Below are positions 5,593 to 23,484 of a stretch of 64,000 bases of DNA, piece after piece (within the stretch, counting starts at the first letter, position 1; each line of letters starts with the position of its first letter). Source of the DNA: Thermotogota bacterium ADurb.Bin062. GTDB lineage: Bacteria > Thermotogota > Thermotogae > MWEM01. The translations under genes were made by a program, and so were the position numbers. The stretch lies in the NCBI GenBank assembly GCA_002071085.1, contig MWEM01000010.1:2047-66046 (forward strand). The letters are read 5' to 3'. The notes under the pieces are model-generated. The model was not told the DNA's origin, made no database searches, and was given only the letters and a program-made list of their open reading frames with translations.

Positions 5593-8500
5593 TTACAACC
5601 CGCGCCTCTCGAACTCACGCCAGGCGACGGCGTAATCGGTCTCGCGGTCGGCGAGGGTGAAAGGCGCGAAATAGCGCACCTCGCGTTCGAAGGGCCCGCC
5701 GGGCCGGGTATCGTCCTTCACCATCCTCGAACAGCTCTCACCGTCCTTCAGTTCCTGCAGGGCCTCCCACTCGGAGCGTTCCCGAAGCCCGACGCCGGTT
5801 AGCCCTTTGCTGTTCGTCCACACAATCCGACCCTTCCGATCATAGTAGGTGTCCTTCTCATACTGCCGCATCACAGGAAACTGGATCCGGTAGATGGAGA
5901 TCAGCTCCTCCAAGGTCAATCCCAGCGCCATCGCGGTGAGGACGTCGATTTCCACGAGCGCCTGGCGACGCGCGTAGTCGTAGCGCAACGCGTTGTGGCG
6001 CTGCCAGGTGGGGGTGAGGTTCCGGAAAAAATCCCGGTCGAGCCGCGGGTCCTCGCTCGTCCAGGTATCTTTCTGAAACCGGGGATCGAACAGTTCCTCC
6101 CACAACTCGGCATAAGGGGTCGTGAGACAGTTGAGGGTGAGGGCGCGTGGAAGCGCGTATAGAAAACGAGAGTCGTCTTCCAAATAGAACAGGTCATCGA
6201 CATTCCCGGTAGTAAAATCTTCTTTTCCGCTGGTTTTGACGAAAAAGTCACTGAGAAGGGAACAAGCCGGAACGAAAGCTTGAAGCAGGCGCCGCGGTTC
6301 CAAGAAAAAGGTAGATATCACGGTATGCACATGGGCTATATTTTTGGGTATCAACGCGGAGATGAAGGTTCTTTCTCCAAATTGGCTCAACCGCCTCCGA
6401 TGGATCATTCGGAAATAATCGGTCACAAGATCGGAACGGTTCCCCTGGTTAAGACTCCATTTCGCGGTCGGAATGCGGTTCTGGTAGAGCATTCTGTCTG
6501 GCGCCGGAACATAATTCGTTCTCGGCAGATAATCGTCGGGGAGTTCGGCGAGATCGAGAGGATCGTAATGACCCTTCTCTGTGCATATAGCCCTCGGCGT
6601 TTTGTAAAAAGGCGTTCCCACGTGAAAATGTGGGCCGGAAAGGATCAGTTCTTCCGCGGTCTTAGGAAAGATGGTCTCTCTTTTGATCGTGCCGTCCTTT
6701 TGGGCGTTGGTTTCATCCCACATTACAGTAGAGTGGTATTCGCCTTTGAGATCCCTCAGGCGATGCGGATAGGCGGCGAACTTCTTCAACACGCCGACGA
6801 TGGGTTGGGCGTGTACGGAGGGGAGTTTCGACTCCAAGGGGGGTGTCCCCTCCTCGTCGAAAAGTTGACTGAAGACCGTTAGCGCCCCTTCATCCACGTG
6901 CACGACCCTTAGATGATGACCTTTCAAGTTCCATTCATCCTGTTCGTTCTTGATTCCCTCAAGCGGTTCATCGCCTTGATGGTCGAAGGAATCATCGATC
7001 GTCTTTGGTAAAAATAGGTTGGAAAGACTGTCAAAAGATATCTCGTGAAAATTGGATTTGTAGATGTTAATCCCATATTTGACTCGGTGCCCAATTGGGA
7101 AAAGCATATATTGGTTTTGAAATTGAAAATGATACCGCAACCGCGGATAGAGCTCGCGGCGCAGCGCGCCGCCTTTCGCGTCGTCATACACCCCTTCCGG
7201 ATGGAGGAAGCCCTGGACGCCGTTTCGGTTCGCGAAGAGCCAGCTCTGCGGTAGAAAGCACTTGAACAGGTTCGACTGTGATCCTTGAAGGAGCGGGTAG
7301 TTCTGGACAGCGTTGAGGAAGCCCTTCGTCGCCTCCATCGTTTCATACTCCCGCACGTAGTCCTCGAGCAGCTCCGGCTGGCGCTCGAAACTGTCGTTCC
7401 GTAGTTTACTGACCTGATCGGCGGAGTATTTCCGGATCGCGAAGAGCGGTTCCGCGTCCGAGAGGATCCCGCCCTCCTCCCATCCCAGTTTGATCCAAGG
7501 GGGGTTCCCAAGGATGAGGTCGAAGCCTCCGCGCTCGTCGAAAACGTCGGCGAACTCCAGCTCCCAATGGAAAAAGGCGATCCGTCGCGCGACCTCGCGT
7601 ACCACGCGCAATGGCTCGAGCTTTTCGCAGAGCGCGTCCAAATCCACGAGGTCCAGGTCGGAAAAGAGCGTCTGCAACTGTTTTTCCGCGTCGTTCTCGA
7701 CGAACAGGGGTCGCTGCGCGGGCGCGGTCGGTATCAGATTCACTTCGAGGATGAGCGAGAGGTGCATCAGGAACTCCGAACGCGACGGCAACAGATCGGC
7801 CTTATCGATCGGCCAGAACCATAGCGCGCACCAATAGTCCATCGCTAACTTCAACCGGGCGTATGGGCCGGCGTTCTCCATCTTTTCGGTATGAAAGAGG
7901 CTCTCGTAGATCGCGTCCTTCTCTTTCGTCGTGTACGGACGGCGGCGCGCCTTCTCCTCGTGTCCAAAGATGGATATCGCGCTCTCGGTGAGCTCTTCGA
8001 CCTTTTTTCGCGCCTTCAGGTGTTTTTCCCAGAGGAGGTCGACCTGGTCGCTCAGCCGCTGCAACGTTTTGATCTCTTCCGCGTCGTAGGGTCGAGAGAA
8101 GTCTTTGTTCCACTCTTTGAACCGCTTGAGTTCTTCGGCTTTCAGTTTTTTGACGACCTTGTCCTCGTACGTCGCCATCGCAGGATCCGCGAGCAGGAAG
8201 TGATAGACGCTGCCCGCCGGTCTCGTCGTTTTCGGTTCCACGCGTTCGGGGGCGACGGTGTGCCACTGTTTCTCCTTCTTCTTCTCCCGAATCTGATCGG
8301 GACGGTAGACCTGTCGGCGCGCGCCGATCAGGGAATTGCCGTTCATCAGCTGCGTTCTGAACCACGGAACGTAGCCGCCCTTGTAGATCGTGTTCAGCCA
8401 GACGGAGACCTCCGCCAACTCCACGGCGATCGGGTTCAGGTCGATTCCGTAGACGTTCCGGTCTGACAGGCGCATCTTGACCTTCTGCTTTTCTTCCGCG

Positions 8501-10290: not shown

Positions 10291-12504
10291 TCATTCGCTC
10301 AGGAGAAGGGCAACCACGCGGATATAGGGGTTGTCTTTCTCGAGCTTCATCGTGTTTACGAGCCAATGTTGAAATTCATTGAATATCTCATCAATCCGAC
10401 GCTTTTCTATCTCGTAGCGCTGGGCGTTCCTTCCGTCAGATCTGTCGTAACTCTGAAGCAGGTCGTCGTGTTTCTTTCGCAGCTCTTTAAGCTTCGCGAT
10501 TTCTTCATCGAGTTTCGGGGTCATCGTCTCTTCGAACTCCTCTTGCTCCGCTTTCATTTTTTCCTTTGCCAGGCCAATCGCCGTCGGCAGTAACTTAGCG
10601 GCCCAATCCGAAACTTCTGCGTTCCTCGAGGCCTGGTTCGGAAGCGCGCCTTTGAATACGTCTGAACGGAGAAAATCCTCCGGGGACAAAAACTCGGCGG
10701 GGTTATCTTCAACGAAGCGGATGACGAACCATCGGTCGATAACCGGCTCGGACTGTCGATTCGGAATCAACCCGGAGATGATGAAGACGGCGGTCCGCTT
10801 CTCCGCAAAGGGGACGAAAAGTACCGGCGCCTCCTGCCTTCCGAAAAACAGCCCCGCTTTATCGTTCATCCAATCGATGATGGGGTGAAGCGGCCAGAGG
10901 TAGTGCGAGCGCGGCCACGTGTCTTGCGCCTTCTGTCGGCTTTCTTTGATCTCACGCATCAGCGCTTTCTTGTCCGTCGTCAGGCGCAACCAGTCGTCGC
11001 TCGGAAACGCCTCCTCGGGTATCTGCGGCTCCAGCGACCGCTTCATCGATTCGGACATCCGGATTTCCATCACGTCGACTCGTGGGGCTTCCAGAGGTAT
11101 GGTTTCCCTGTTAGAGATCGTTTCCAAGAGGGTTTTCAGATAACTCGTTTCGTCAAACAGGGTCACGGGATCGGCCTTTTCGACGTTCGTCGCCTTCGCG
11201 GCTTCGTCGGGAAGGTTCCAACCCGCGTTCATCATCGCCAAAAACGGGTTTTCGGGAGCCGATAGCAGGCGCTCGAAAGCATTCACGCTGAGGCTCTTTT
11301 CGAAAACGCGGGCTACCGTCCGTTCTTCCTCTTCCACATCGTACCGCCCCAAGAGGGAGGCGGGGTCGCCGATATTCTTTTCCGCCTGCTCTTCCTTATC
11401 GATGAGTATTTCCAGGATGCGCATATCCCCGCGAATGCGCTCGTTTTTCGCTTTGGTCACCAGATAGCGGATGTCCGGCGTTTTTTCTTGGCCGTACCGG
11501 TCGATCCGGCCGTTCCGCTGTTGGAACACCATCAGTGACCACGGGATGTCGAAATGGATCAGGCGATGGCATAGAAAATGGAGGTTGATGCCTTCGGACG
11601 CCACGTCGGAGGCGATGAGGAGACGAACGGGGGAGTCGGTCGCGCCGAACTCATCGACCGCCTGCTGTTGGTCCACATCGCTCATACCGCCGTAAAGACA
11701 GGAGAGTTGGCCATCGCTCAGCCGGAGGTCCTCTTTCAGGCGTTTGGCCAAAAACCTCATCGTCTCGATTCGTTCCGTGAAGATGACGAGGCGGTCGTCC
11801 GGGCGCTCGCGATTCCAACCGTATTCGGGGCTTTGGAGCAGGCGGACCAGAAGGCGGTATCGTGAAAAATGCTCGGGTGTGATTTTTTTCAAATGGTCGA
11901 TGAGGGTCTCTAGAGCGCGGATATCGGAGGCGCTCTCGGACCGCCCCTCTTTTTTCAGTCTATTGATGCGCGCCTGCGCCGTTTTTTCGCAGGCGACCGG
12001 TGAGGAGAAGAGGGACTTTTCCAGCAGCGTTTTAAACAGCATGGTCTCCCCGCGAGCGGGGTCGATCCAGGTGAGATTGAGAGTCTCGAAAAAGTCGTAG
12101 AACGCTTCTTCTAACGGGGACGCCTCGCACGTTTCCCGACTGATCACACGTTCCTTGAAATGGGCGGAAACCTGGTTCTGCACATCCTTTTTGAATCTGC
12201 GGAAGACCATCCCTTGGATGTCCTCGCGCCGGTAGTCCTCCTCGTTGGCGATGGCGGTCGGCTCCAACATATTCATCAAGGAGGCGAAACTCTGCGGGCG
12301 GCCATCGTGAGGAGTCGCCGACAGGAGGATGAGCGTGTCCGAGCGTTTGGAGAGCAATTCGGCGAGGCGGGACCGTTGCGCTTGCGTTTTGCCACGTCGC
12401 GCGACGTTGTGCGCTTCGTCGATCACGATGATGTCCCACCGGGTTTTTTCGAGCAGCGTTCGGTACTCGCGGTCCATCTTCAGGGTGTCGATCGAAATGA
12501 TCAC
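10291..12504 (-). CDS. SNF2-family helicase (DrmD-like), C-terminal fragment (motifs II-VI). The gene is interrupted by a frameshift.
   Basis: DEAH box WDIIVIDEAHNV, LLSATPHDG, HELICc-type region ...LIASDVASEGINLH...QRNGRIDRYGQ. The frame stays open and SNF2-like (IQRIRANIPTNHNPFYYFDKVIISIDTL) upstream of the annotated GTG, as far as the T5 tract at 12615-12619. Confidence 0.75.
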   Translation of the reverse strand: MIISIDTLKMDREYRTLLEKTRWDIIVIDEAHNVARRGKTQAQRSRLAELLSKRSDTLILLSATPHDGRPQSFASLMNMLEPTAIANEEDYRREDIQGMVFRRFKKDVQNQVSAHFKERVISRETCEASPLEEAFYDFFETLNLTWIDPARGETMLFKTLLEKSLFSSPVACEKTAQARINRLKKEGRSESASDIRALETLIDHLKKITPEHFSRYRLLVRLLQSPEYGWNRERPDDRLVIFTERIETMRFLAKRLKEDLRLSDGQLSCLYGGMSDVDQQQAVDEFGATDSPVRLLIASDVASEGINLHFLCHRLIHFDIPWSLMVFQQRNGRIDRYGQEKTPDIRYLVTKAKNERIRGDMRILEILIDKEEQAEKNIGDPASLLGRYDVEEEERTVARVFEKSLSVNAFERLLSAPENPFLAMMNAGWNLPDEAAKATNVEKADPVTLFDETSYLKTLLETISNRETIPLEAPRVDVMEIRMSESMKRSLEPQIPEEAFPSDDWLRLTTDKKALMREIKESRQKAQDTWPRSHYLWPLHPIIDWMNDKAGLFFGRQEAPVLFVPFAEKRTAVFIISGLIPNRQSEPVIDRWFVIRFVEDNPAEFLSPEDFLRSDVFKGALPNQASRNAEVSDWAAKLLPTAIGLAKEKMKAEQEEFEETMTPKLDEEIAKLKELRKKHDDLLQSYDRSDGRNAQRYEIEKRRIDEIFNEFQHWLVNTMKLEKDNPYIRVVALLLSE

Positions 12505-13118
12505 CTTATCGAAATAGTAAAATGGGTTATGGTTCGTCGGAATGTTGGCGCGAATACGTTGGATCCCTCGGGAGTCCAGCCGTTTGAGCGGAATGGTGAA
12601 CCGGTCCAGAGTTCTTTTTGGAGCTGGAGCATCATACTTTTCAGCGCGACGACGAGGATACGTTTCCCTTTACCGCGCGCGATCAGCTCGCTCATCAACA
12701 CGCCGGCTTCGAGCGTTTTCCCGAGGCCGACACCGTCTGCCAGCAGAATGCGTTGACGGGGCCGGGCTAAGGCGCGCTGGGCGGGCTCCAGTTGGAAATC
12801 GATCACATTCATCGCCGCTTTGTGCCCGATGCGCAAGACGTTTCCCGGCGGGGTTCGTCGACGCAGGAGGCTCTCGATGTAGAGCCGCGACTTCCTAAAC
12901 ATCGGCGACCGGTCGACAACGAACTGGGTATCAGCCGGATCGATCACGCGTATCTCCTCGAGATCGGACAGGAACGCGGCCTCCTGCCCACGCACAAAAT
13001 CGGAAACGCCCGTCACGCTTAAAATGTATTTCCTATCCGCGTTGTAATCGGCCCGCCGAACTACCCACTCCTCACCGCGTACCTGTATCCGCATACCGGG
13101 CGCGTATATCTGTGTCAT
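12501..13118 (-). CDS. SNF2-family helicase (DrmD-like), N-terminal fragment (motifs I-Ia). Reading is lost after ...LQLQKELWT at an A5/T5 homopolymer.
   Basis: Walker A LADGVGLGKTLEAG, motif Ia ILVVALKSMMLQLQKELW. Adding one base in the T5 run (12615-12619, plus strand) joins this frame to the downstream fragment and gives a continuous SNF2 protein. Confidence 0.7.
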   Translation of the reverse strand: MTQIYAPGMRIQVRGEEWVVRRADYNADRKYILSVTGVSDFVRGQEAAFLSDLEEIRVIDPADTQFVVDRSPMFRKSRLYIESLLRRRTPPGNVLRIGHKAAMNVIDFQLEPAQRALARPRQRILLADGVGLGKTLEAGVLMSELIARGKGKRILVVALKSMMLQLQKELWTGSPFRSNGWTPEGSNVFAPTFRRTITHFTISIR

Positions 13119-13170: not shown

Positions 13171-15186
13171 CTATACCTTCCAGAAAGAGAAGAGCATGAA
13201 CACGATCAACGCCACCCATTGGCTCGCGAATACCATCAATTGAAAGAAGTAGGTGCGATCCATCTTTTCTTTGACGCGCTTCTCAAGGGCAGTTAGGCGG
13301 TCATCGAAGGCCTGTTGTTTCTCGGCCGTTTTCTTTTCCAGTTCATCGAGCGCGGTCAGAGCGCTCTCGAACGCGGCGGTTTTTTCGGTCAGGGTTGCGA
13401 TCGACTCGCTGTAATGGCCTTTCAGCAGCTTAGGTAGGGCTTCAACGGTTTTCTGCGTTAAAACCGCGAGGTTTCGGGAATCCTGGAGAGAGGCGTGGAC
13501 ATTTTCATCCATCTCTCTCAGGGCATCCAAAGTCTCCCGATTTCCTTCGCCAAACGACGCAATGAGGTTGCCAAGCTTGCGGTCAACCGTTGACACGAAT
13601 GCGGGATCCAGCCGTGATAAACCGGTTTTCTCATCAACGAGCGAGCGCAGGCGTGCGCCCAAGTCGCCGGTCGAATCGGCGAGGCGCTTCACCAAGTCAG
13701 AAAACTCGGCGTGCTCCGCGCGGTCGTGCTCCCGTTGATTTGCGGCCTCTTCGGCTAATTGCCGTATCGCGGTTTGAATTCCACCGCTCTCAGTATTGAT
13801 TTTGCTTGTGTTTTCGAGCAGTTCGGTGTATGTCGAGCTGATCAAATCGGCGAGTTCTTTCGTTAAGCTGGACAGCCCGGCGATTTCCGCGCGGCCGCGC
13901 TCCCGTTGATTTGTGGCATCTTCGGCTAACTGCCGTATCGCGGTTTGAATTCCACCGCTCTCTTCATAGATTTTACGCGTGTTTTCCAACAGTTCGAGCT
14001 GCGCTACGCCTGCCGATTCGGCAAGATCTTTCACCAGGCCGGACAACTCAGTGAGTTTTGCCAAGTCGTGCTCCCGTTGACTCGCGGTCTCCTCAGCTGC
14101 TTGCCGTATCGCGAGTTGAATTTCACCGCTCTCTTCGCTGATTTTGCTTGTTTTTTCGAGCGACTCGGTTTGTCTTGAGCTGGTCGATGCGGCAAGTTCC
14201 TTAACCAATCCGGCTAACTCGGCTACTTCTGTTCGATTCTGTTCCCATTGACTCGCGACCTCTTCGGATACTTTCCGTATCGCGGTTCGTATCACACCGC
14301 TTTCTTCATTGATTCTTCTTGAGTTTTCAAGCAATTCAGTGTGTGTGGAACTGATCAAATCCGCGAGTTCCTTCGCCAAGTCGGATAGCTCGGCGAGATT
14401 CGCGCAGCTGTGTTCTCGCTGTTTCGCGGCTTCCTCGGTTGCTTCGCGAATAGCGGTATGAAGCTTCTCGCTTTCCGTATTGCCCCTTCGGGCATTCTCG
14501 AGCATTTCCGCTTGCGTGGCGCCAAATGATTCCGCGAAGCCCTTCACCAAGCCGGACAGCCCGGCGATTTCCGCGCGATCGTGTTCACGTTGATAAGCGG
14601 CGCCTTCGGCTAACTGCCGTATCGCGGTTTGAATTCCACCGCTCTCTTCATAGATTTTACGCGTGTTTTCCAACAGTTCGAGCTGCGCTACGCCTGCCGA
14701 TTCGGCGAGATCTTTCACCAAGCCGGACAACTCAGCGAGTTTTGCCAAGTCGTGTTCCCGTTGATCAGTGGCCTCCTCAGCCGCTTGCCGTATCGCGGTT
14801 TGAATTCCACCGCTCTCTTCACTGATTTTGCGCGAGTTTTCAAGCAATTCAGTGTGTGTGGAACTGATCAAATCCGCGAGTTCCTTTGCCAAGTCGGCAA
14901 GCTCGGCGATATTCGCGCAGCTGCGCTCGCGCTGTTCGGCTGCGCCTTCGGTTGCTTTTTGTAACGCAGCGTGAAGTTCGCCACTTTCCGTATGGATTCT
15001 GCGCGTGTTTTCCAATAGTTCGGCGTACTTGGCGTTGAGCTCTCGGACGGACAGCGTGAACTCGTTCAAAACGGCAACGAGCTCGTTATCCGCGTTTCCC
15101 AGCGAAAAACCCTCCTCTAGCCTTCTTTCTTCGTTTCCATCGATATCATTCATTCGCGCCCTCCTTCGAGCATTTCTTCTATCCAT
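13171..15186 (-). CDS. Tail-anchored coiled-coil protein built of ~45-aa tandem repeats with a C-terminal transmembrane helix. The start is probably the ATG at 15153.
   Basis: Repetitive low-complexity sequence (...LAELSGLVKDLAESAGVAQLELLENTRKIYEESGGIQTAIRQLAE... repeated more than 6 times). C-terminal hydrophobic FFQLMVFASQWVALIVFMLFSFWKV. RBS GAAGGAGGG lies 5 nt before the ATG at 15153 and inside the 3' end of the upstream helicase gene. Confidence 0.7.
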   Translation of the reverse strand: MDRRNARRRARMNDIDGNEERRLEEGFSLGNADNELVAVLNEFTLSVRELNAKYAELLENTRRIHTESGELHAALQKATEGAAEQRERSCANIAELADLAKELADLISSTHTELLENSRKISEESGGIQTAIRQAAEEATDQREHDLAKLAELSGLVKDLAESAGVAQLELLENTRKIYEESGGIQTAIRQLAEGAAYQREHDRAEIAGLSGLVKGFAESFGATQAEMLENARRGNTESEKLHTAIREATEEAAKQREHSCANLAELSDLAKELADLISSTHTELLENSRRINEESGVIRTAIRKVSEEVASQWEQNRTEVAELAGLVKELAASTSSRQTESLEKTSKISEESGEIQLAIRQAAEETASQREHDLAKLTELSGLVKDLAESAGVAQLELLENTRKIYEESGGIQTAIRQLAEDATNQRERGRAEIAGLSSLTKELADLISSTYTELLENTSKINTESGGIQTAIRQLAEEAANQREHDRAEHAEFSDLVKRLADSTGDLGARLRSLVDEKTGLSRLDPAFVSTVDRKLGNLIASFGEGNRETLDALREMDENVHASLQDSRNLAVLTQKTVEALPKLLKGHYSESIATLTEKTAAFESALTALDELEKKTAEKQQAFDDRLTALEKRVKEKMDRTYFFQLMVFASQWVALIVFMLFSFWKV
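13748..14960. repeat. Intragenic tandem direct repeats (~135-bp unit with a 684-bp higher-order period) inside the coiled-coil gene. 13920-14032 and 14604-14716 are 100% identical over 113 bp.
   Basis: Direct comparison of the sequence lines. ttcggctaactgccgtatcgcggtttgaattccaccgctctcttcatagattttacgcgtgttttccaacagttcgagctgcgctacgcctgccgattcggc occurs twice. The sub-motif ctgccgtatcgcggtttgaattccaccgctctc recurs about 6 times. Confidence 0.9.
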
Positions 15187-18100
15187 TCTACCGCATATTT
15201 CCTCTTTAGTATCTCATGATACCTTTGGTTGGTGTAGTTACGCAAACAGCCGTAACAAGAGGAATCCCCCTCTTCGCCCCCACATAGGCAACCCTTTAAA
15301 AAGGACTCGGTAAGCTTGAGGATTCCCTCGAACGCTCCATCTTCCATACACCAGCGTATGTGACCGGCGCCCCCCGCGACGTTGTCGAACAGAAGCAAAT
15401 TCGGATACGACCTGCCCTCCACGGGAAAGACGATTCCATCGAGGTCGTTCCGGTCTATGTCCAGGAACAGGCTAACCCCCTCTAAAAGCGCGTAGAGGAT
15501 AGAAAGCCAGTATTCTTTCTCATCGTTTGTCCGTTTATTTTCCGGAGGGGTGATCTCCAATATTTCCGTTTTAAACTGGTAGCCGAGCGCTTTTCTACGG
15601 GCGATCTTTCCTGGGCACCTCTTGCCTTGAGGGTTATTGTGCTCTCTTTCCAGCGTCTTTTTGGCGTCGGAGTAACCGCAAGCCAAACAAACGTTGAACC
15701 CCCGCGGGCCGCCGGGATTGATGGTCACCAAATTGCCCAACATCGTTTTCAGGTGAACCGGATACCTCAGCAGGAGGGTTTTTTCTTCGATGGTGTACTC
15801 TTCTTTCCCGAGCAGGCAGCGCGTTTGAGAGAGCTGTGTCTTCTTTATCACACCCGCTTTCTCGGGCTGTCCGGAGATGAACCCAAACTCGGGGAAAAGG
15901 TAATCGCCAACGTTTAACTGACTGCCGCAAATCTTGCACGTCTTGGTTGTCGAGCGCTCCTTGATCGACACCTTCGAAAACCCGCATTTTCGGCAGAAGG
16001 CATAACTCTCCTCGATCAACGCCTTGTCGGGCACTTTCTTGATATACTGCGTCGACCACTTCTGCTTGTTCGCGTAGACGGGATTGTCCGGCGCATATTC
16101 CCAAAGGGCGGTTTTCATATCCCGCGAGAGCTCCAAGTCGTCCATCTTTTCGTCGAAGGGCGCCATCAATTCTATGACGTCGACCGGAAACCCGTAGCGA
16201 GGTAGAATCCCTTTTCCGGCCAGGTATTGCATGAGATTACGGCCTAAAAGGGTTTGCACCTTTCTATGGAGCGTGTCCGCTTTTCTGAAGGTTCTCTTTT
16301 TGGTCGCCGCATCGATCAAGTCCGTCAAGACCCGTATGTCTTCTTTCAATTCTTTGCCGATGTGGTAGAGAGAAGCGTGCGTAACCGGAGAATCGGAAAA
16401 CAGGAGGTACGCCCAGGGCAAAAATTGTTTTTGGCGCAGCTCGTGTTCGGTAGCAGGAATGGTCTCTCGTATCGTTTTGTCCAGCTCCTCTTGATGCGTC
16501 GCGACGAAGTGTTCGAAGCGCGCGACCCCTTCGAGGTCATCGTCCGTTTCCGGAAAAAAGAAGGCCTTCACGTCTTTGAAATGGTTCGGATACTGACGCC
16601 AATACTCGGCCAATGCGATCGCGGCCATATGACGATAGCGTATTTTCTCGTTTTCCAGCACAAAGGAAGGCGGGGCAATCTCGCCTTTAATCATTTTTTC
16701 CGGGTCGCTAAAGAAGTAACGGTCGTGAGGCCTTCGTAACGCGTAGGTGAGAATGAAAGCCGGATTGGAGGTTCTCCTGCCGGCCCGCCCTGCCCTTTGC
16801 AGGTAGTTCGACGCGGTTGGGGGCACGTTTTTGAGAAAGATCGTGTCCAAATCCCCGACGTCCACGCCTAACTCGAAGGTCGTCGAGCAGCTGAGGATCT
16901 GTATTTTTTTATGATAGAAGTCTTCTTGAAACTCCCGCGCTTTTTCATATTTAAGCTGGGCTGTGTGCTCTTCCACTCGAAGCGGGGAGAGCTCGAGCGT
17001 GCGGTACAAGTCTCGGTAGTGGTTAGGGCCTAACGCCGAAAAGTTCGTCTCCCTCACCGTCCCTTGACATCCATAAGAAGGACAGACCCCCCGTACCGCA
17101 AAAAAGAAAAGTTCTTTACACCGATCACATTGGTAAAGTTTCATATCCGGAGTCAGGAGCGGCGAAAGGATTTCCAGGGCGTCTATCTTCAATCGCTTCC
17201 CGCTTTGGTTGCGCTTTGTAAAAGAGGTTTCGAAACAGTCCCTCCAATCCGGATGGTCGAATTCTTTCCAAATCCATTGAAGTAACTCCGGGACCTCCTC
17301 CTTTCTCGCTTTTGGAAATAGGCGGCGTAAATAATCGGAGCGCGCGTTTTCGAAACGATAGGGGACCCAACTTTTCACGCCTGCTTGGGTTTGCGCCGAC
17401 AGCGTCATCAACGTTTTCAAATTCCTCGGCGCGAAAAACTCGTGTTCGGGTTCTATGTCCGGTAAGTAGGTCAAAGCGCCGCACTTTCTGAAACTGGAAA
17501 GTAAGAGTTGATACAGGCTGTGGGCCTCTTCCGGAGTCAAATTCCAAGGCGCGTTCAGGAGCGGGCTTCGCTTTTCGAGAGACTCGTAGAGTCCTTTGGA
17601 AAGAGGGACCTTGAAGCCCAGGAGCCCGGCGCCTTCGAGACCCGTGCGCCGATCGTAACTCATCGCTTCGTATTGTGTCCATAGGTAAGCGGTCGTCTCT
17701 ATTGTCTGCTTATCCATTTGGTAGTCTTCCGGGAGGCGTTTTTTGGCGAATTCCGCCAGGTTTTTGACGATCCAATCGTTCTCGATGGCCTTTTCTCGAT
17801 AGGTTTCGAGCGTGTTCACCAAAATGCGCCTCCAGAAGATCCTGTCATAACTCTCTTGAAGGTACGGCGCGAAGTACGCCGCGCCTTGGCGACTGTCCGA
17901 AAAGACGATAAAGCCGTTTTGCCGCTTCCTTTCTTCGGGAGACAGGCCGCTATACAGGTTCTGAAAGAGGGCCGTGGCGATAACGCTTCCCGAGGCGTCC
18001 GCCCCGTCTAAAAACCGCCAAAGAACGGGGGTTAGACTTGATTGCGCGCCGCAATTCAAGCACTTGTTCACGCGTCCTTCCTTCGATTTTGCCTTTTTTG

Positions 18101-19946
18101 CGGAAAGAAGAGCCACCCCGCAGTCGCAGGCGTTCCCGATCAAGTTTTCTTGAGAGACCTTCCCACATCGGGGACAGATTTGGAAAAGGTTGCGAGTATC
18201 CCGTTCTTCGGATGCCCCATCTTCTTCATCCTCATTTTCGGCAACCGCTCTGTCGGGTTCTATGAGGAGATACCAGTCGAGAAATTCGTCCCCTTCGGTT
18301 TGATCGTATTCGGTTTGTCTCAAAATCCCCGTGTCCTTGTCAACGGTCCCTGTCAAATAGACCGCCCCGCAGTTTTTACAGGACCCGATCTCGAAAAACA
18401 ACCGCTCTGTGGAAGAGTCGTCCATCTTCTCTATGGTTTTCCGTTCGAGTTGGAGGGTTTTATCCGGGTAGAAAGAGACGAAAGCGCCTTCCAAGGCCTT
18501 GAGAAATAGATGGTACTTCATAGAGGACAAGGAGGTTTGCGGAAAGAGGTGGCACACGAGGTTTATCAGTAGGACCAAATGGAAGGACAGTACTTCACGT
18601 TGCGCGTCTTTTGGAAAGAGGATTTCCGTTAGTTTGGAAAACTCACAAGGTCCGCTTTCCAATATTCGATTGACCTCTTTCACCTTCTCGTCGTTTTCGA
18701 CAATCCTCAGAAACGTGTCCGAGAGGTCGAAAGGCGCATTCGGTCCTTCCGCCCTTTTCAATGTCGGCGATCCGTCGGGATTGTGAGCGCGGTTTCCGAT
18801 GGTCTCCCCTATCCACCGGCTCAATTTCTCAGTCACCAAGGAGTTGGCTTCTCCTTTAAAATAGGCGATCAGATCGGTATAGAACTCCGGTGGGATAGTG
18901 ATTGGCCCGGCTTTGACTTGGAGCTCCCTCGGCGTGTAGGGCAATTTTTCGCCGACGATGATATCCTGACGCTCCGGATCGTTTTTGTCCCATTCGACGC
19001 GAGTGTGAAAAAGGTTTTGTGCGAATTGCGCGAGCTTCGAACACGCGTCCGGGGAATAGCCGAGAGAGGCGCTCGTGCCGAAGTATTGCAGGGCTTGGCC
19101 TTGCGCGCTTCGCCCGATACGGTGAGCGAGACGCCGCAGCAGCAACGCGGTTTCGATCCCTTTCGCGCCGCCGTAGGTGTGCACTTCGTCCAATATGAGG
19201 AACTTCCAAAAACGCGCGTGTTCTCCGTCGAAGAAAACGCAATCGTCCGGTCTCAGGAGCAGGTATTCGAGCATCGCGTAGTTGGTGATTAACAGGTGCG
19301 GCGGCGAGCCACGCATCCGAGCTCTACTGATGAGCTCGTTGGGTAAGGGGTCGTGCGCGAAAAGCCTCACGAATCGGCTCAGCGCGCTCTTTTCCTCTTG
19401 TTCGGTTTCCCCGGTATAGATGCCGAAGGTCACTTCCGGTATCCTTTTCAGAATACTGCGCAAACGAAGTAATTGATCGTTTGCCAGCGCGTTCATCGGA
19501 TACAGTAAAAGGGCTCTGACTCCGGGCGTCAACTTGGATTCTTCGATCTGCCTGAAAAGGTAATTCAAAACCGGGATCAGGAAGGATTCCGTTTTCCCGC
19601 TTCCCGTACCGGCGGAGACGATGAAGCTTTTTTTCTGCACAACCGCCTTTCTCACCGCCATTTCTTGATGCGCGTATAACGGTCGATCGGAAGGCAGCGT
19701 TTCTTGGTCGATCCTAAGGAAGATCTCGGAGAGGATTCCCTCCCGCACGAGCTCCCCGATCGATTTCCCAGTTCTATAGCGGGACAAACGTTCGATGTAG
19801 GGCCCTTTGCATAGCGCGTTTTCTTTTTCGATTTCTTCTTGGAATTTACCGTGTAGTTCCGGGTCGGAGAGGTGGAAGGTCGTCAGGAGATAACTACGGT
19901 ACTTTTCCAAGACGTCTTCGGTCATTCTTATCGGATTAATCGGCAC
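15150..19946 (-). CDS. DEAD/DEAH-box helicase fused to a C-terminal DUF1998 domain (DruE / DrmA-DrmB / YprA-MrfA family), 1598 aa.
   Basis: LYAHQEMAV, Walker A SAGTGSGKTESF, LLLYPMNALANDQ, DEVH box LILDEVHTY, GTSASL, motif VI LQRAGRAGRR (~16770-16800). DUF1998 signature VCLACGYS...CPGK...LLLFDNVAGGAGHI...CLCGG...CYGCL (15170-15800). GTG start with GGAGG 7 nt upstream. The gene overlaps the upstream gene by 11 nt. Confidence 0.85.
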   Translation of the reverse strand: MPINPIRMTEDVLEKYRSYLLTTFHLSDPELHGKFQEEIEKENALCKGPYIERLSRYRTGKSIGELVREGILSEIFLRIDQETLPSDRPLYAHQEMAVRKAVVQKKSFIVSAGTGSGKTESFLIPVLNYLFRQIEESKLTPGVRALLLYPMNALANDQLLRLRSILKRIPEVTFGIYTGETEQEEKSALSRFVRLFAHDPLPNELISRARMRGSPPHLLITNYAMLEYLLLRPDDCVFFDGEHARFWKFLILDEVHTYGGAKGIETALLLRRLAHRIGRSAQGQALQYFGTSASLGYSPDACSKLAQFAQNLFHTRVEWDKNDPERQDIIVGEKLPYTPRELQVKAGPITIPPEFYTDLIAYFKGEANSLVTEKLSRWIGETIGNRAHNPDGSPTLKRAEGPNAPFDLSDTFLRIVENDEKVKEVNRILESGPCEFSKLTEILFPKDAQREVLSFHLVLLINLVCHLFPQTSLSSMKYHLFLKALEGAFVSFYPDKTLQLERKTIEKMDDSSTERLFFEIGSCKNCGAVYLTGTVDKDTGILRQTEYDQTEGDEFLDWYLLIEPDRAVAENEDEEDGASEERDTRNLFQICPRCGKVSQENLIGNACDCGVALLSAKKAKSKEGRVNKCLNCGAQSSLTPVLWRFLDGADASGSVIATALFQNLYSGLSPEERKRQNGFIVFSDSRQGAAYFAPYLQESYDRIFWRRILVNTLETYREKAIENDWIVKNLAEFAKKRLPEDYQMDKQTIETTAYLWTQYEAMSYDRRTGLEGAGLLGFKVPLSKGLYESLEKRSPLLNAPWNLTPEEAHSLYQLLLSSFRKCGALTYLPDIEPEHEFFAPRNLKTLMTLSAQTQAGVKSWVPYRFENARSDYLRRLFPKARKEEVPELLQWIWKEFDHPDWRDCFETSFTKRNQSGKRLKIDALEILSPLLTPDMKLYQCDRCKELFFFAVRGVCPSYGCQGTVRETNFSALGPNHYRDLYRTLELSPLRVEEHTAQLKYEKAREFQEDFYHKKIQILSCSTTFELGVDVGDLDTIFLKNVPPTASNYLQRAGRAGRRTSNPAFILTYALRRPHDRYFFSDPEKMIKGEIAPPSFVLENEKIRYRHMAAIALAEYWRQYPNHFKDVKAFFFPETDDDLEGVARFEHFVATHQEELDKTIRETIPATEHELRQKQFLPWAYLLFSDSPVTHASLYHIGKELKEDIRVLTDLIDAATKKRTFRKADTLHRKVQTLLGRNLMQYLAGKGILPRYGFPVDVIELMAPFDEKMDDLELSRDMKTALWEYAPDNPVYANKQKWSTQYIKKVPDKALIEESYAFCRKCGFSKVSIKERSTTKTCKICGSQLNVGDYLFPEFGFISGQPEKAGVIKKTQLSQTRCLLGKEEYTIEEKTLLLRYPVHLKTMLGNLVTINPGGPRGFNVCLACGYSDAKKTLEREHNNPQGKRCPGKIARRKALGYQFKTEILEITPPENKRTNDEKEYWLSILYALLEGVSLFLDIDRNDLDGIVFPVEGRSYPNLLLFDNVAGGAGHIRWCMEDGAFEGILKLTESFLKGCLCGGEEGDSSCYGCLRNYTNQRYHEILKRKYAVEWIEEMLEGGRE

Positions 19947-22900
19947 GGGTCAACCTCCGGAATGCGAAGTATACCCTTTCTACGAGGATATCTTCGCGGC
20001 GATGTTTTTCTATCCAGTAGAGGAGTTTCTCGTCCACGTCATAATAGGCGCCGTCCCCTTCTTTGTCTATGAGAAACGGAAGGGTTTGATGATCTTCGTT
20101 AATGAAAAAGCGGACCGGGTTCGTATTCAGCCAATATTTTCTATAACCCTTGTCATCCAACCAGACGATATCGCCTTCGTAGGGCTCTCCCTCCTCAATC
20201 TTATCCGTGGGCCTGATATTCCGGATGACGCATTTTGGTCCGGCCAGGGCGTATTCTCGGTCTTGCTCATCGGTGACCTTGAGGATCTCCAAGCCCGCAT
20301 CCTTTGCAAATATATCATCTTTTGTGAAGGCAAGTGAAACATCGGGTTCGTGGAGACCGTGAAATTCCCGCGCGACCCGGTTACCAACAACCCATTCGAC
20401 GGTGAAAGGGCCGGAAGGAAATGCGCGCGTTTGAACCTTAAAACTGTACTCGCTCCGCCCAGCGTCAAGAAAGGCTTCGAAGTGTTTATCACCCTCAGTG
20501 GAAAGGCGCAAGCGCAGTCCGGAGGGGTTGTCTTCACGAGACCAGCGGCAATGGACGTGAGTCACCTGCGCGTCGGCATCTTCTTGGAGCGCGACTTCGG
20601 CATCCGCGAAGGGGACGCGAAAGGAAAAGGTTGCGATCGGTGGTGTCTCGGCGTATCGAAGCCCCCGTTCGTAGATAGAAAAAGATTGCTCGGCGGTCTC
20701 GCTGGCGCGTATGTTGTCGAAAAAAGGCCGCATGTCGACGCTTAATCGATCCTTCTTCACGGAGCAACGAGTGATTTGCCCCGTTTGATCGTGTCGGCAT
20801 TCGAACTGTTTTCCCCTCAAGTCGTACGGGAGTCGGAACTCTTTTTTAAGGGGATAGCCGTAGAAGATCGGGGAGTACTCGGATAGGGATTCTGAGGTGT
20901 CTTCATCGACGAAGGGCCTTTCGAATTCGCAGGAGAACGTTAATCCATCCGAGCCGGAGGGGTTGAGCGTCAGAACGGCTTGAACCGTTTGAACCCCGGG
21001 GTCTATACGACAACGGATCTCCATGCCCCCCTCTTCCGACTGGATTTCGGAAGGATCGAGCGCGGGAAAAGAAAAATGGATTTCGTCCTCCGCCTTTATT
21101 TCCAAGCGCCCCGGCGCGTGGAGGGACCTATCCTCCGAAGACCAGCGGAATCTAAACCGCGGCAGCACCCAGAAGACCATATCGATCGGAAGCCTTTTGA
21201 CCCCGAAGATAGAGATGCGATACCGACCATAAGGGGAATCGAAAAATTCCGCGGGGCATACCTCCATAGACTCGCTCGGGCTATCGCTTTCCGCGGGGTT
21301 GTTGGCGACTTGAAAGGTTGAAACGCGTGAAGGGCCTGATTCGAGAACAACCTCCATTTTCCAGGCGCCCGCATCGCCGGTGGCCGGAGGCATCCGTATC
21401 GTCGGGCAACGGAAATAGACGTTCTCTCCACGCGCCGTGACCCCTTCGACAGGACTTTCGCTGAGCTTTCCATAGAAACCGGCCCGATAAAAAGCGAGAC
21501 TTCCACCGGTCGGGCTTCTGATTTGGAAACAGTCCGTATCCGACAGATCGAGAGCGGCGTAGTCAAAATTCGGGGCTCCATACCATCGGGTTCTGTCTGA
21601 GACCGCTTCGGCCGGTGTGATTTCGTTCTCGCCGGACAGAATGAGGTAGAGGTAGTCGGTCGCATACTCACGCTTCTTCAACGCCTCCCCGTTCTCGTCG
21701 AAGACCAGTAACGGGTACTCCTCACAGAGCTGTGGTTTTATGGAAAATTCGCGGATGGGCTCTTTGCTGTTCATCAATCTGTTCACTTTAAAGGCGCGGA
21801 TTTCTAGTGTACCGAAAAACGGTGAAATTTCGCACCGTTCCCTCTGGGTTTCTATTGAGCCGCCCTGATTAAAAAGCGAACATTCCCTGACAAAGACCTC
21901 TCGGTTTGCTTTCGCTTCCACGACGGACAGAAAGATTTTTTCTTGTTCATCAATCTCATTGAGAACGATTGGGGGGATAACGAGCCACAGCCGCTCCAAA
22001 TCGAGGTCCAACTCAAGGTAGGGAGCGCTTTGCCTGGGTGTCTGAACTATGTGAGTCCGATGTTCTATTTCGCTTCTTATGCCTTTTCTCAGCCTTTTTG
22101 AGAGTAAGGGCCACCGGTCAGCTTCATCGAGAAGCGCCTTGTCGAGGCCTTCGAGCGCGCGGATATACTCGATGGTCGACCTTATAAAAATATGCGCATC
22201 GTTTCCGGATTGGGAGAGGAAACACCGTGTTCCCTCGCACAAGAACCTATTCCTTGTAGCATCCCCAGATTCTCCGAAAGGAGGTTCTGCTGAATCTCCA
22301 AAAGGAGGTTCTGCGGGAATCTCTTGGTCTGTGAATAGAGAATCCGCGAAATCGAAGAGCGCCGTTTCTGAGAGGTTCAAAGCATCGGGGTAGTGGTTTT
22401 TTATGAAATGGTACAGGGCCTTCACGACATCCCAACTGAGAGGTCCCGCGTGCTCTTCCTTCCATTCGCGTACCACCTCGAGCTTCGCGCGAAGGTCATC
22501 CAAAGAAATCGGCTTCCCCGGAGAGAGAAGGTTTCGCACGCGGTTGATCCGGCTGACGGCTTCTTTCAATACGACATATCGGTCGATCGCTCTTTGATAG
22601 GTGTCTTTCAATCGAACGAGGCGCGTCCGATGTCTGTCTTCTTCGACGAACGGCGAGTCCGCTAAAAAGACGACCAATTCTTTCTTCAACTGGTACCGGG
22701 AGAGCTCGCGCGCTTTTTCCGCCCAGCGATTCGGCAATTCCTCTTCGATCACGCGCATCATCATAGGGTTATCAAGAAATTCGGTGTAATAGGAGGTCGC
22801 CTCCGGCGCCTCTCTGTACAACATAATTAAAGGCCAGTAAGCCAATGATTTTTCCAGAGACTTACGTAACTGGGCGGTTTTCTCTCTACCCGCGATTACT

Positions 22901-23484
22901 TCAGGCTGGTAGGATTCTTTGATTTTCCGGAGTTCTTCCGCGATCTTCTCGTCGCTCACCGGTCGATCACTTTCGATCTCAGGAAAAGCCCAGCGGATAT
23001 AGCGCGCCCATTTCGGAATGTATGAGTCGGGAACGAAACTGTGAGCGAGGATGGCCACGACGAACCGAAAGCCGGTATGAGGGAAATAAAAGCCCAGCCC
23101 ATCTCGACAGGTTTTTAGGAACAATTCTCCGATTTTTTGTTCCAAAGCTACGGAGGGTGTTTGGATGTCCAGCGCTTGAAAAATCGAACTCCAAAAGTTC
23201 CCTTCTTCATAGGTTTTGGCCCCAATATGAACGAGAAAGGCGCAGAGGGTTCCCCGGTATTTGAAATCTTCGATAGGCGATCCCCGATTCAGGAATTCCT
23301 CTTTCAAGTAAGCGCTCAATTCCGGGCGAATTTCTTCCATTTCTTGGTCCGAGAAGCCTGCGAGCTCGTAATACTTACTTTTTCTCATTGCCTTATACAT
23401 TTGAAAATCAAAAAGGGTAAGCTTCGCGCTCAACGGTATCATTCCTTTCCGAGGCGATCGCGATCTACATCGATTATACATCAT
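19936..23484 (-). CDS. Large hypothetical protein (1182 aa) with no recognisable catalytic motif. It is translationally coupled to the downstream DUF1998 helicase and may be a DruH-like partner. An alternative start is at 23442.
   Basis: A long ORF with an ordinary, non-repetitive composition (not low-complexity). It overlaps the helicase gene by 11 nt. No P-loop, nuclease or methyltransferase motif found by eye. The start codon lacks a clear RBS, so the start is uncertain. Confidence 0.55.
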   Translation of the reverse strand: MMYNRCRSRSPRKGMIPLSAKLTLFDFQMYKAMRKSKYYELAGFSDQEMEEIRPELSAYLKEEFLNRGSPIEDFKYRGTLCAFLVHIGAKTYEEGNFWSSIFQALDIQTPSVALEQKIGELFLKTCRDGLGFYFPHTGFRFVVAILAHSFVPDSYIPKWARYIRWAFPEIESDRPVSDEKIAEELRKIKESYQPEVIAGREKTAQLRKSLEKSLAYWPLIMLYREAPEATSYYTEFLDNPMMMRVIEEELPNRWAEKARELSRYQLKKELVVFLADSPFVEEDRHRTRLVRLKDTYQRAIDRYVVLKEAVSRINRVRNLLSPGKPISLDDLRAKLEVVREWKEEHAGPLSWDVVKALYHFIKNHYPDALNLSETALFDFADSLFTDQEIPAEPPFGDSAEPPFGESGDATRNRFLCEGTRCFLSQSGNDAHIFIRSTIEYIRALEGLDKALLDEADRWPLLSKRLRKGIRSEIEHRTHIVQTPRQSAPYLELDLDLERLWLVIPPIVLNEIDEQEKIFLSVVEAKANREVFVRECSLFNQGGSIETQRERCEISPFFGTLEIRAFKVNRLMNSKEPIREFSIKPQLCEEYPLLVFDENGEALKKREYATDYLYLILSGENEITPAEAVSDRTRWYGAPNFDYAALDLSDTDCFQIRSPTGGSLAFYRAGFYGKLSESPVEGVTARGENVYFRCPTIRMPPATGDAGAWKMEVVLESGPSRVSTFQVANNPAESDSPSESMEVCPAEFFDSPYGRYRISIFGVKRLPIDMVFWVLPRFRFRWSSEDRSLHAPGRLEIKAEDEIHFSFPALDPSEIQSEEGGMEIRCRIDPGVQTVQAVLTLNPSGSDGLTFSCEFERPFVDEDTSESLSEYSPIFYGYPLKKEFRLPYDLRGKQFECRHDQTGQITRCSVKKDRLSVDMRPFFDNIRASETAEQSFSIYERGLRYAETPPIATFSFRVPFADAEVALQEDADAQVTHVHCRWSREDNPSGLRLRLSTEGDKHFEAFLDAGRSEYSFKVQTRAFPSGPFTVEWVVGNRVAREFHGLHEPDVSLAFTKDDIFAKDAGLEILKVTDEQDREYALAGPKCVIRNIRPTDKIEEGEPYEGDIVWLDDKGYRKYWLNTNPVRFFINEDHQTLPFLIDKEGDGAYYDVDEKLLYWIEKHRREDILVERVYFAFRRLTRAD

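Follow-up and report, generated by a model that had tools for sequence, protein, structure and literature searches.

A probable DruH-type partner of a compact Druantia type III helicase in a Thermotogota bacterium, with a C-terminal domain of its own

Four independent studies of 2026, all on the protein of Druantia type III-A, differ on what DruH does, describing it as an ssDNA binder switched off by ATP, as a 3'-5' exonuclease and as a phage-protein sensor. Its plan is a helical head followed by an Ig-like array (10.64898/2026.05.12.722862; 10.64898/2026.05.13.724313). A III-B subtype has also been named (10.64898/2026.05.13.724758; 10.1101/2025.09.15.676423), and the partner of the compact DruE helicase is already called DruH (10.64898/2026.05.13.724758; PMC13316683).

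The window analysed here, 64,000 nucleotides of Thermotogota bacterium ADurb.Bin062 (contig MWEM01000010.1), contains five co-directional, tightly spaced minus-strand genes, the first of which encodes a large protein referred to here as X (Table 1). The same five genes are present in two homologous loci (L001 and L004). Scans for consensus promoters and terminators around the operon gave nothing useful. The large orf that had been noticed from the sequence is real, its frame being uninterrupted from 23484 to 19936, and the length of 1182 codons that it had been given, counted from the first ATG, stands for the longest orf. The protein itself is likely to begin at the ATG at 23442 and to have 1168 residues, because the annotated start of both homologues corresponds to Met15 (MIPLSAKL...) and conservation between X and its 50%-identical homologue covers residues 18-27. 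An 11-nt overlap with the GTG start of the helicase gene had also been described correctly: the TAA stop of X lies 11 nt inside the helicase orf, a Shine-Dalgarno-type GGAGG precedes the GTG at 19946, and the identical overlap is annotated in both homologous loci.

Table 1. Features of the X operon, in window coordinates
Feature	Coordinates	Strand	Remarks
X, DruH-like gene	19936..23442	-	1168 aa from ATG 23442; longest orf to 23484
N-terminal all-alpha domain of X (residues 1-189)	22876..23442	-	Conserved; alignments, AF2
Long helical/coiled-coil region of X (residues 190-469)	22036..22875	-	AF2 helices, low confidence (pLDDT 35-70)
About six beta-sandwich (Ig/FN3-like) domains of X (residues 470-1034; model residues 456-1020)	20341..22035	-	AF2 strands
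Beta-rich C-terminal domain of X (residues 1035-1168)	19939..20340	-	DSSP of AF2 model; motif NPVxF...LPFLxDxxxDG...LxW
Translational-coupling junction	19936..19958	-	GGAGG 19958-19954; helicase GTG 19946-19944; X TAA 19938-19936
Compact DruE/YprA-family helicase	15150..19946	-	1598 aa, ends just past MZB/DUF1998
Y, function not assigned	13171..15186	-	Orf of 671 aa; 603 aa in the L004 annotation
ArmA/DrmD/BrxHII-like SNF2 helicase	10291..13118	-	Split into 205 + 737 aa
ArmB/PglX-like (type IIG-like) N6-adenine DNA methyltransferase	5593..10281	-	1562 aa; last operon gene

The adjoining gene does encode a DruE-like DUF1998 helicase, as proposed: it matches the PADLOC model DruE1 (1.4e-170), contains DEAD, Helicase_C and MZB/DUF1998 domains (MZB at residues 1485-1568), and scores 568 bits as DruE versus 64 bits as DrmA. 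No PLD or Vsr match and no C-terminal nuclease domain was found in it; its homologues in L001 and L004 include a YjiV_N domain. A search for related loci with the X-family alignment returned no relatives, and the better-conserved helicase was used as the query instead. The helicase relatives in 80 surveyed genomes are 30-42% identical to that of the window; more than 3 kb of upstream sequence is present in 75 of these 80 loci, and in 66 of the 80 a member of the X family lies directly upstream of the compact, nuclease-less DruE. Five partners with about 16% identity to X (P0003, P0004, P0106, P0010 and P0019) each directly precede a DEAD-YjiV_N-Helicase_C-MZB helicase of about 1600 aa, and helicases whose X-type partners share about 16% identity are themselves 37-42% identical. 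An X-family gene upstream of a compact, nuclease-less DruE is the Druantia type III-B arrangement.

The statement that X has no recognisable motif was confirmed: a threshold relaxed to E<=10 still gave zero matches in Pfam-A, NCBIfam and PADLOC, and no PDB sequence matched. The DruH models (PADLOC DruH3 PDLC00038-50, Pfam PF27205 and PF27201, NCBIfam STY4851/ECs_5259) miss X at E<=10, and DruH3 matches none of 104 members of the X family; as a positive control, E. coli YjiT matches DruH3 at 3.7e-241. Precomputed Pfam annotation is empty for P0001, P0002, P0004 and P0106 but lists PF27205 plus PF27201 for true DruH, and HMMER profiles of the X family did not match the solved DruH 9tud_A. The PADLOC model C3a139 is matched by eight distant family members retrieved with the X profile (P0010 covers the whole model) and the MzaA model by two others (about 1e-55); therefore, the X-type N-terminal domain also occurs in proteins that were already known from the vicinity of defence loci. 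X itself matches neither model, even at E<=10.

Word-indexed homologue searches retrieved only two proteins with X as the query and four with a 38-sequence alignment, so that an exhaustive HMMER search was needed. Iterated profile searches place X in a large and fast-diverging family: jackhmmer started with X, its E-values calculated for 1.8e9 sequences, took in the actinobacterial partners at round 3 (L049, L054, L064 and L075, E 4e-56 to 2e-85) and converged at 180 sequences; type III-A DruH was never reached. A three-sequence profile of X alone did not detect the actinobacterial members. Mass-spectrometric and primer-derived peptides of Mycobacterium smegmatis DruH align colinearly with the L049 partner (65% identity, E 4e-6 and 5e-5), which in turn matches the X-family HMM at 4e-46. 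Judged by these matches, the DruH of M. smegmatis, which has been validated experimentally, has an orthologue in the X family; the link from X itself to that DruH is transitive, not direct. The mutated residues of M. smegmatis DruH could not be mapped by numbering onto the protein of Mycobacterium sp. L054, which is not colinear with it.

The AF2 model gives X the plan of a DruH, with a helical head and, after it, about six Ig-like domains. The N-terminal domain carries the motifs FLVxxGxxxYxEGN[YF]W and YVxPILxHGxIP and was modelled with a pLDDT of 84 and a pTM of 0.79; the model matched no PDB fold. Matches to the ClpB M-domain and to SMC coiled coils fall at family profile positions 160-370, which the actinobacterial members skip, the coiled-coil region being absent there. 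The X-type C-terminal domain occurs in about 50 of the 180 family sequences collected and has no similarity to the C-terminus of type III-A or actinobacterial DruH (HHalign probability below 1% versus the III-A C-terminal half). Between X and its 98%-identical counterpart in L004, no nucleotide differs in the first 510 or the last 134 codons; the 45 codons that have changed, together with a 14-aa indel, all lie within the Ig-like array, which is the only part of X that varies between close strains; this variability echoes the rapid evolution reported for DruH (10.64898/2026.05.12.724681). Positive selection on the array was considered and set aside: the 22 non-synonymous and 23 synonymous changes are raw counts that do not prove it, and a patch of recombination is equally possible. 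A surface adhesin or phage tail protein was likewise rejected on account of the strict coupling to the helicase and the lack of an N-terminal hydrophobic signal-like segment.

The sequence-only reading had suggested a likeness to DruH, to be pursued by remote-homology search, and such a search bears it out for the N-terminal domain. Full-length HHalign of the X family versus DruH gave a probability of only 20-30%; restriction to the N-terminal domains of the X family and YjiT/DruH raised it to 88.8% (E 2.5e-6, score 43.9, 125 columns in register), where reversed and shuffled controls scored 10-25. Foldseek with the full model of X found only Ig/FN3/MG arrays (E 3e-7 to 1e-4), with TM-scores below 0.2 that are uninformative on function. 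With E. coli DruH as the query, phmmer gave in-register N-terminal matches to dozens of X-family members. The K-12-type DruH and 9tud_A, both bona fide type III-A proteins, are mutually alignable over only their N-terminal 250 aa; therefore, similarity confined to this domain is normal for the family. At the level of remote homology, the N-terminal domain of X appears related to that of YjiT/DruH, and the predicted architecture and the gene position agree with this assignment.

Of the other genes in the operon, Y has weak coiled-coil-type matches only and is present only in the closest relatives. The DISARM-like module that had been recognised beside X and the helicase holds, and can be refined to ArmA and ArmB of ARMADA. 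In the window the SNF2 gene is broken by the loss of one nucleotide from a run of CCC; L004 and L001 carry it unbroken, so that the frameshift could be peculiar to this strain or an error of sequencing. Aligned over its full length (953 columns), the unbroken orthologue shares 45% identity with E. coli ArmA (ECs_5261). The methylase matches Eco57I, N6_Mtase, REase_MTase_IIG (5e-273) and DrmMI (1.6e-57), and is 45% identical to ECs_5262 over residues 5-1557 (1652 aligned columns). Downstream of it no further minus-strand gene and no ArmC- or ArmD-like gene was found, leaving one YprA helicase in the operon, and strong homologues of the SNF2 and methylase genes flank only four of the 80 surveyed helicase loci.

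X is most probably a DruH-type partner of a Druantia type III helicase, a member of the compact III-B lineage and of a subclade marked by a C-terminal domain not shared with the others. The other outcome that had been foreseen, a new and non-homologous partner class in the position of DruH whose N-terminal likeness is convergent or spurious, would account for the silence of every DruH model, the weak full-length HHalign, the unrelated C-terminal domain and the failure of jackhmmer to merge the X family with III-A DruH, but it is unlikely. It leaves unexplained the domain-restricted alignment with its clean controls and the phmmer matches in the same region, as well as the shared overall plan and gene position; bona fide III-A proteins have no more than the N-terminal domain in common themselves, and the literature calls this partner DruH. 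In place of a new class, X may be annotated from its sequence as a very divergent DruH subtype, with a C-terminal domain and a coiled-coil insert that lack counterparts in III-A or actinobacterial DruH.

The remaining genes raise the question of whether there is a Druantia module here at all. The order helicase-(Y)-SNF2-methylase is that of ARMADA type I (10.1101/2025.09.15.676423), the ArmA and ArmB homologies are strong, the YprA helicase is single, and its blastp segments score alike with ArmC (156 and 143 bits) and with the C-terminal part of III-A DruE (165 bits), all of which would suit X as an accessory of a methylase-linked, ARMADA type I-like system whose YprA would be the helicase of the window. 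However, the ARMADA YprA has a C-terminal Vsr nuclease, whereas the helicase of the window ends after MZB; its 80 closest relatives are nearly all paired with an X-family gene but seldom with the SNF2 and methylase genes, and PADLOC scores it as DruE, making this reading quite improbable. Far less credible again is that X is a degenerate or inactive remnant of a decaying operon. The split SNF2 gene and the missing ArmC and ArmD could be signs of decay, but the frame of X is intact over 1168 codons, a separate lineage that has all five genes keeps a 50%-identical protein, both ends of X are unchanged at the nucleotide level in L004, and the SNF2 gene is unbroken in L004 and L001, as noted above.

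If X is a DruH, its role would by analogy be that of DruH as a putative sensor/adaptor partner of the anti-phage helicase. The Ig-like array and N-terminal domain may sense an infection cue; the candidates published for other DruH proteins are replicating phage DNA in forked or single-stranded form and a protein of the phage tail or baseplate. The N-terminal domain may bind and possibly trim DNA, and docking of X on DruE could license loading at ssDNA-dsDNA junctions and 3'->5' unwinding of phage DNA. The DruE of the window has no nuclease; therefore, X, nucleases of the host or the ARMADA genes of the operon would have to account for the destruction of DNA. The pair might also work with ArmA as SNF2 translocase and ArmB as N6-adenine methylase, methylation by ArmB marking host DNA as self and DruE taking the place of ArmC, the YprA helicase of ARMADA. 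It is a tentative proposal that the five genes form one integrated Druantia/ARMADA chimera, in which DruH-DruE replaces ArmC, ArmB sets the self/non-self mark, and X, with its private C-terminal domain, and Y serve in sensing. Such a chimera, if true, would bridge Druantia III and ARMADA as a natural intermediate and would make a Druantia-type defence subject to gating by methylation.

The family that occupies the DruH position upstream of compact DruE is much larger and more diverse than annotation tools detect: the DruH models of PADLOC, Pfam and NCBIfam miss all 105 proteins tried, namely X and 104 others of its family. The sole link across the whole family is the N-terminal helical domain, and the C-terminal domain can be exchanged. 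With better profiles drawn from the X family, many Druantia III-B systems that now escape annotation would be recovered. The X operon keeps the gene order of the synergistic Druantia-ARMADA island of E. coli with a single YprA helicase; therefore, it is a natural test case for the sharing of components between Druantia and ARMADA and for the gating of a Druantia helicase by methylation.

Among known systems, DISARM class 1 (DrmA helicase split from the DUF1998 protein DrmB, with the PLD nuclease DrmC) differs in that the helicase and MZB regions are fused in the window and the operon has no PLD gene. ARMADA shares the ArmA/ArmB pair; its Vsr-type YprA (ArmC) and type II ArmD were not found. 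The gene order recurs in E. coli SpLE6/OI-172 (ECs_5259-5264, E. coli Sakai), where Druantia III-A is followed by ARMADA II and DruH-DruE-ArmA-ArmB are arranged as in the window. The E. coli array has a second YprA helicase (ArmC) and ArmD, which the window lacks, whereas the window has the extra gene Y between DruE and ArmA; Druantia and ARMADA are separable units in E. coli, whereas the genes of the window form one tight operon.

Type III-A DruH (YjiT or STY4851/ECs_5259; PDB 9tud; E. coli and P. aeruginosa) resembles X in size (about 1100 aa) and in gene position, directly upstream of and co-oriented with druE (with the 11-nt overlap in the case of X). Both have an N-terminal helical domain, remotely homologous between them by present evidence, followed by Ig-like domains, and their Foldseek matches are alike. 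III-A DruH uses a helical C-terminal domain to bind the DruE stalk and to form the ssDNA/ATP pocket; no such domain can be recognised in X, whose C-terminus is predicted to be beta-rich, and III-A DruE, at about 2100 aa, has PLD nuclease domains that the window helicase lacks.

A further close system is Druantia III-B, for example that of M. smegmatis (MSMEG_1253/1254, PMC13316683), where a domain-less protein of 1132 aa, compared with 1168 aa for X, likewise overlaps the start of a helicase of 1667 aa, compared with 1598 aa in the window, both helicases being of the DEAD/Helicase_C/DUF1998 type without a nuclease domain. III-B is a two-gene system, whereas the X operon has five genes, including Y, ArmA and ArmB. 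A coiled-coil insert of about 200 aa sets X apart from the actinobacterial III-B members, and where X ends in a beta-rich domain they have a C-terminal helical region of about 330 aa. Nevertheless, X and III-B DruH form one sequence family by iterated search, and their N-terminal domains and Ig-like arrays align.

The sequence-only reading had described X, the DruH-like gene of this island, as a large ORF without recognisable motifs that overlaps the helicase start by 11 nt, and this description is confirmed. The minus-strand ORF is uninterrupted from 23484 to 19936 (1182 codons counted from the first ATG), its TAA at 19938-19936 produces an 11-nt overlap with the helicase ORF, the GTG start of the latter has GGAGG ahead of it at 19958-19954, and the X protein has no match among PDB sequences or, even at E<=10, in Pfam-A, NCBIfam and PADLOC. 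The annotated start in both homologues of X is the equivalent of Met15 (MIPLSAKL), and conservation with the 50%-identical homologue extends upstream of Met29; therefore, X is best read as a protein of 1168 aa.

Coordinates of the island and neighbouring features in the window, with the regions of the AlphaFold2 model of X
Feature	Position	Strand	Remarks
X	19936..23442	-	first of five closely spaced co-directional genes
X, N-domain	model residues 1-165		all-alpha, confident
X, long helices	model residues ~150-350		low confidence; more helices to 450
X, ~six beta-sandwich domains	model residues 456-1020
X, C-terminal domain	model residues 1035-1150		beta-rich
X, variable stretch (residues 511-1034)	within 20341-22035	-	codon comparison with L004 relative
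DruE/YprA helicase, 1598 aa	GTG start 19946	-	second gene; DEAD, Helicase_C, MZB/DUF1998 domains
Y, 671-aa ORF	13171-15186	-	third gene; weak coiled-coil-type matches only
SNF2 helicase, DrmD/BrxHII type (ArmA/DrmD-like)	10291-13118	-	fourth gene
N6-adenine methylase, 1562 aa		-	fifth gene; Eco57I + N6_Mtase domains
Gene, 433 aa	24139-25440	+	divergent from operon, adjoining; no Pfam/PADLOC match
Gene, 594 aa	25723-27507	+	divergent from operon, adjoining; no Pfam/PADLOC match
20-mer repeat GGGAACGCCAACTTTTAAGT	23783, 23968, 25423, 27876, 30374, 39637, 39900, 41496, 44759, 49880		10 copies

The helicase matches DruE1 of PADLOC at 1.4e-170 and ends about 30 residues past MZB, and therefore has no nuclease domain; its Walker A lysine is K118. 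The SNF2 protein (compared through its intact orthologue in L004, the locus whose X is 98% identical) has 45% sequence identity to the ARMADA component ArmA over 953 aligned columns, and the methylase has 45% identity to ArmB over residues 5-1557; in PADLOC the methylase matches a type IIG model (5e-273) and DrmMI (1.6e-57). No minus-strand gene was found after it. Relative to the 97%-identical, intact L004 gene (942 aa), the SNF2 gene of the window has lost one nucleotide (CCC to CC) near 12604-12606, which breaks it into parts of 205 and 737 aa; it is either a pseudogene in the window's strain or the product of a sequencing error. All five genes are also present in L004 (NCBI assembly GCA_023622605.1) and in L001-L003 (JGI digester metagenomes, X 50% identical). 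Y, the ORF between the two helicase genes, occurs in the window's close relatives only and was assigned to no family; its weak matches are to SMC, LmuB and JetC, and its homologue in L001 (494 aa) has a marginal match to RsbR_N, a globin-like sensor (1e-6, 29.4 bits, cut-off 27).

The 433-aa and 594-aa genes are present in L004 and absent from L001, which has an M48 peptidase gene directly ahead of X; the two genes resemble an independent insertion and might be a further uncharacterised pair of defence genes. The repeat GGGAACGCCAACTTTTAAGT (<=3 mismatches; no copies expected) folds as a hairpin (GCCAACTTTTAAGTTGGC), is mainly intergenic, with two copies within a 650-bp stretch upstream of X, and resembles a host-genome repeat of the REP/MITE type. 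Outside the island, 30800-35639 (+) encodes ordinary signalling proteins: a PAS-rich hybrid histidine kinase, a response-regulator diguanylate cyclase (GGDEF) and an HD-domain protein. No part of the window matched an Rfam family.

A word-indexed search with X found just two relatives, the 98%- and 50%-identical types. When 1.84 billion representatives were searched exhaustively by HMMER with a three-sequence profile of X (E<=1e-3), 104 proteins were found, mostly of 950-1700 aa and matched chiefly over the N-terminal 40-210 residues and, in a subset, also over the C-terminal 120 residues. Six distant members were examined, and five of them (P0003, P0004, P0106, P0010 and P0019, ~16% identical to X) directly precede a gene for a helicase of ~1600 aa with DEAD, YjiV_N, Helicase_C and MZB domains; the gene downstream of the sixth, P0044, is truncated by a contig end. 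Conservation is far higher in the helicases (37-42% identity) than in their partners (~16%) across the four distant loci aligned (L005, L007, L011, L013). When the helicase alignment was searched against one genome per GTDB species, followed by local ORF calling and HMM searches, 80 loci were obtained from Actinomycetota, Chloroflexota, Bacillota, Bacteroidota, Methanosarcinales and other groups, 75 of them with upstream sequence longer than 3 kb. The upstream ORF abutting the helicase matches the X-family HMM in 66 of the 80 (E 1e-9 to 1e-284), and in most other loci with upstream sequence a large co-directional ORF (~560-1455 aa) abuts the helicase. Ten pre-helicase co-directional ORFs of 699-1455 aa without a match to the X-family HMM (L024, L035, L036, L058, L068, L076, L077, L083, L089, L090) may be even more divergent DruH-like partners.

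Eight distant members from the exhaustive search (P0005 and P0010 among the matches noted) match PADLOC C3a139, labelled 'HKD+Snf2', the match covering the whole model in P0010; two members match MzaA at ~1e-55 and one has HerA/DndH-like matches. Therefore, other catalogued defence systems also include proteins with the X-type N-terminal domain, and the 'HKD+Snf2' label looks wrong for these family members.

The sequence-only reading had left X as either a DruH homologue or a new class of helicase partner. Druantia III comprises III-A, with a DruE of ~2100 aa that carries PLD nuclease domains, and III-B, with a compact DruE that does not, and the helicase partner is named DruH in both (10.64898/2026.05.13.724758; 10.1101/2025.09.15.676423). 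DruH models, which identify E. coli YjiT at 3.7e-241 (PADLOC), match neither X nor any of the 104 family members tested, and an HMM of type III-A DruH (113 sequences) matches none of the upstream ORFs of the 80 surveyed loci. When jackhmmer was started from X alone (E-values scaled to a 1.8e9-sequence library), actinobacterial partners entered at round 3 (E 4e-56 to 2e-85) and the search converged at 180 sequences, type III-A DruH never being reached; because the three-sequence profile of X does not by itself reach the actinobacterial proteins, this link is transitive. The experimentally validated system of M. smegmatis has a DruH of 1132 aa and a DruE of 1667 aa with a 17-bp overlap (PMC13316683). 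Peptides of this DruH, taken from the supplement (mass-spectrometry legend and mutagenesis primers), are colinear with the partner protein of the surveyed locus L049 (65% identity; E 4e-6 and 5e-5), which matches the X-family HMM at 4e-46.

Profile-profile comparison of the X family with type III-A DruH is weak at full length (20-30% probability); confined to the N-domain, it gives 88.8%, E 2.5e-6 and a score of 43.9 over 125 columns in register, against 10-25 for one reversed and 20 column-shuffled controls. Such confinement is normal for the DruH family, because the solved DruH 9tud_A and K-12-type DruH can be aligned over the N-terminal 250 residues only (E 1.7e-21). A new partner class is not borne out, as the family precedes compact helicases and its N-domain is remotely homologous to that of DruH. 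Very probably, X is a divergent DruH from the lineage with compact DruE (III-B), in which it stands out by a C-terminal domain of its own and an inserted coiled coil. In practical terms, the DruH models now in use overlook its whole family.

The AlphaFold2 model of X (mean pLDDT 74, pTM 0.41) starts at M29 and has 1154 residues, model number plus 14 giving the Met15-start numbering. Foldseek searches of PDB and BFVD returned Ig/FN3/MG domain arrays only, matches of the same type as published for DruH, and the N-domain modelled by itself (pLDDT 84, pTM 0.79) has no match in the PDB (best E 0.77). The helical linker, skipped in actinobacterial members, has ClpB M-domain and SMC matches in the X family and behaves as a coiled coil. 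About 50 of the 180 sequences collected have the C-terminal domain of X, whose profile does not resemble the C-terminal regions of DruH from type III-A or from actinobacteria.

Between X and its 98%-identical relative, the changed codons (23 synonymous, 22 non-synonymous) and a 14-residue indel (TGDAGAWKMEVVLE) all lie within the Ig-like array, and the 510 codons before it and the 134 at the end are nucleotide-identical; in comparison, 30 changed codons are scattered over the 1598 of the helicase, and the SNF2 gene has 93 differing positions. Therefore, the array is the variable part of X, as it is in type III-A DruH according to published work. From this pattern, it may be a recognition region that is hypervariable or undergoes recombination. 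The counts of 22 and 23 are equally compatible with diversifying selection and with a recombination patch.

The present analysis demonstrates the gene coupling, the membership of X in its family, the homology of the N-domain, the Ig-like array with its variability, and the homology to ArmA and ArmB. By analogy with published work on DruH, the N-domain and Ig-like array of X might sense an infection cue (a structural protein of the phage, or intermediates such as replication forks or ssDNA), and X would next dock on the helicase and license 3'->5' unwinding. Because the window's DruE has no nuclease, DNA degradation must come from X, host enzymes or the ARMADA genes; methylation by ArmB could conceivably gate the system.

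Full-length YjiT (1096 aa, from the E. coli locus L010) retrieves the 'STY4851/ECs_5259' family, which bears Pfam PF27205 and PF27201. Two E. coli strains have a decayed Druantia III locus in their immigration control region: in K-12 (L009, 12415-16856), yjiT is a truncated DruH of 505 aa and yjiV a DruE pseudogene, and in ECONIH1 (L010, 12304-18637), DruH is full-length and DruE is annotated as frameshifted. In SpLE6 of E. coli Sakai, ECs_5260 (DruE) is followed by ECs_5261-5264 (ArmA, ArmB, ArmC and ArmD), and ECs_5259, which gave the DruH family its name, is just upstream of the stretch examined. Therefore, the order DruH-DruE-ArmA-ArmB is common to the window and the E. coli island, in which Druantia III and ARMADA II are synergistic (10.1101/2025.09.15.676423). 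Unlike that island, the window lacks ArmC and ArmD and has Y and one single YprA helicase; no description of a DruH-DruE-Y-ArmA-ArmB operon was found in the cited literature. Strong homologues of the SNF2-methylase pair flank DruH-DruE in four of the 80 surveyed loci, all from unrelated Actinomycetota. In L061 (an Actinomycetes MAG) they have the direction of DruH-DruE and a second YprA-like ORF follows them, and in L042, L075 and L092 they are divergently oriented; thus, the E. coli-type Druantia III/ARMADA neighbourhood recurs across phyla.
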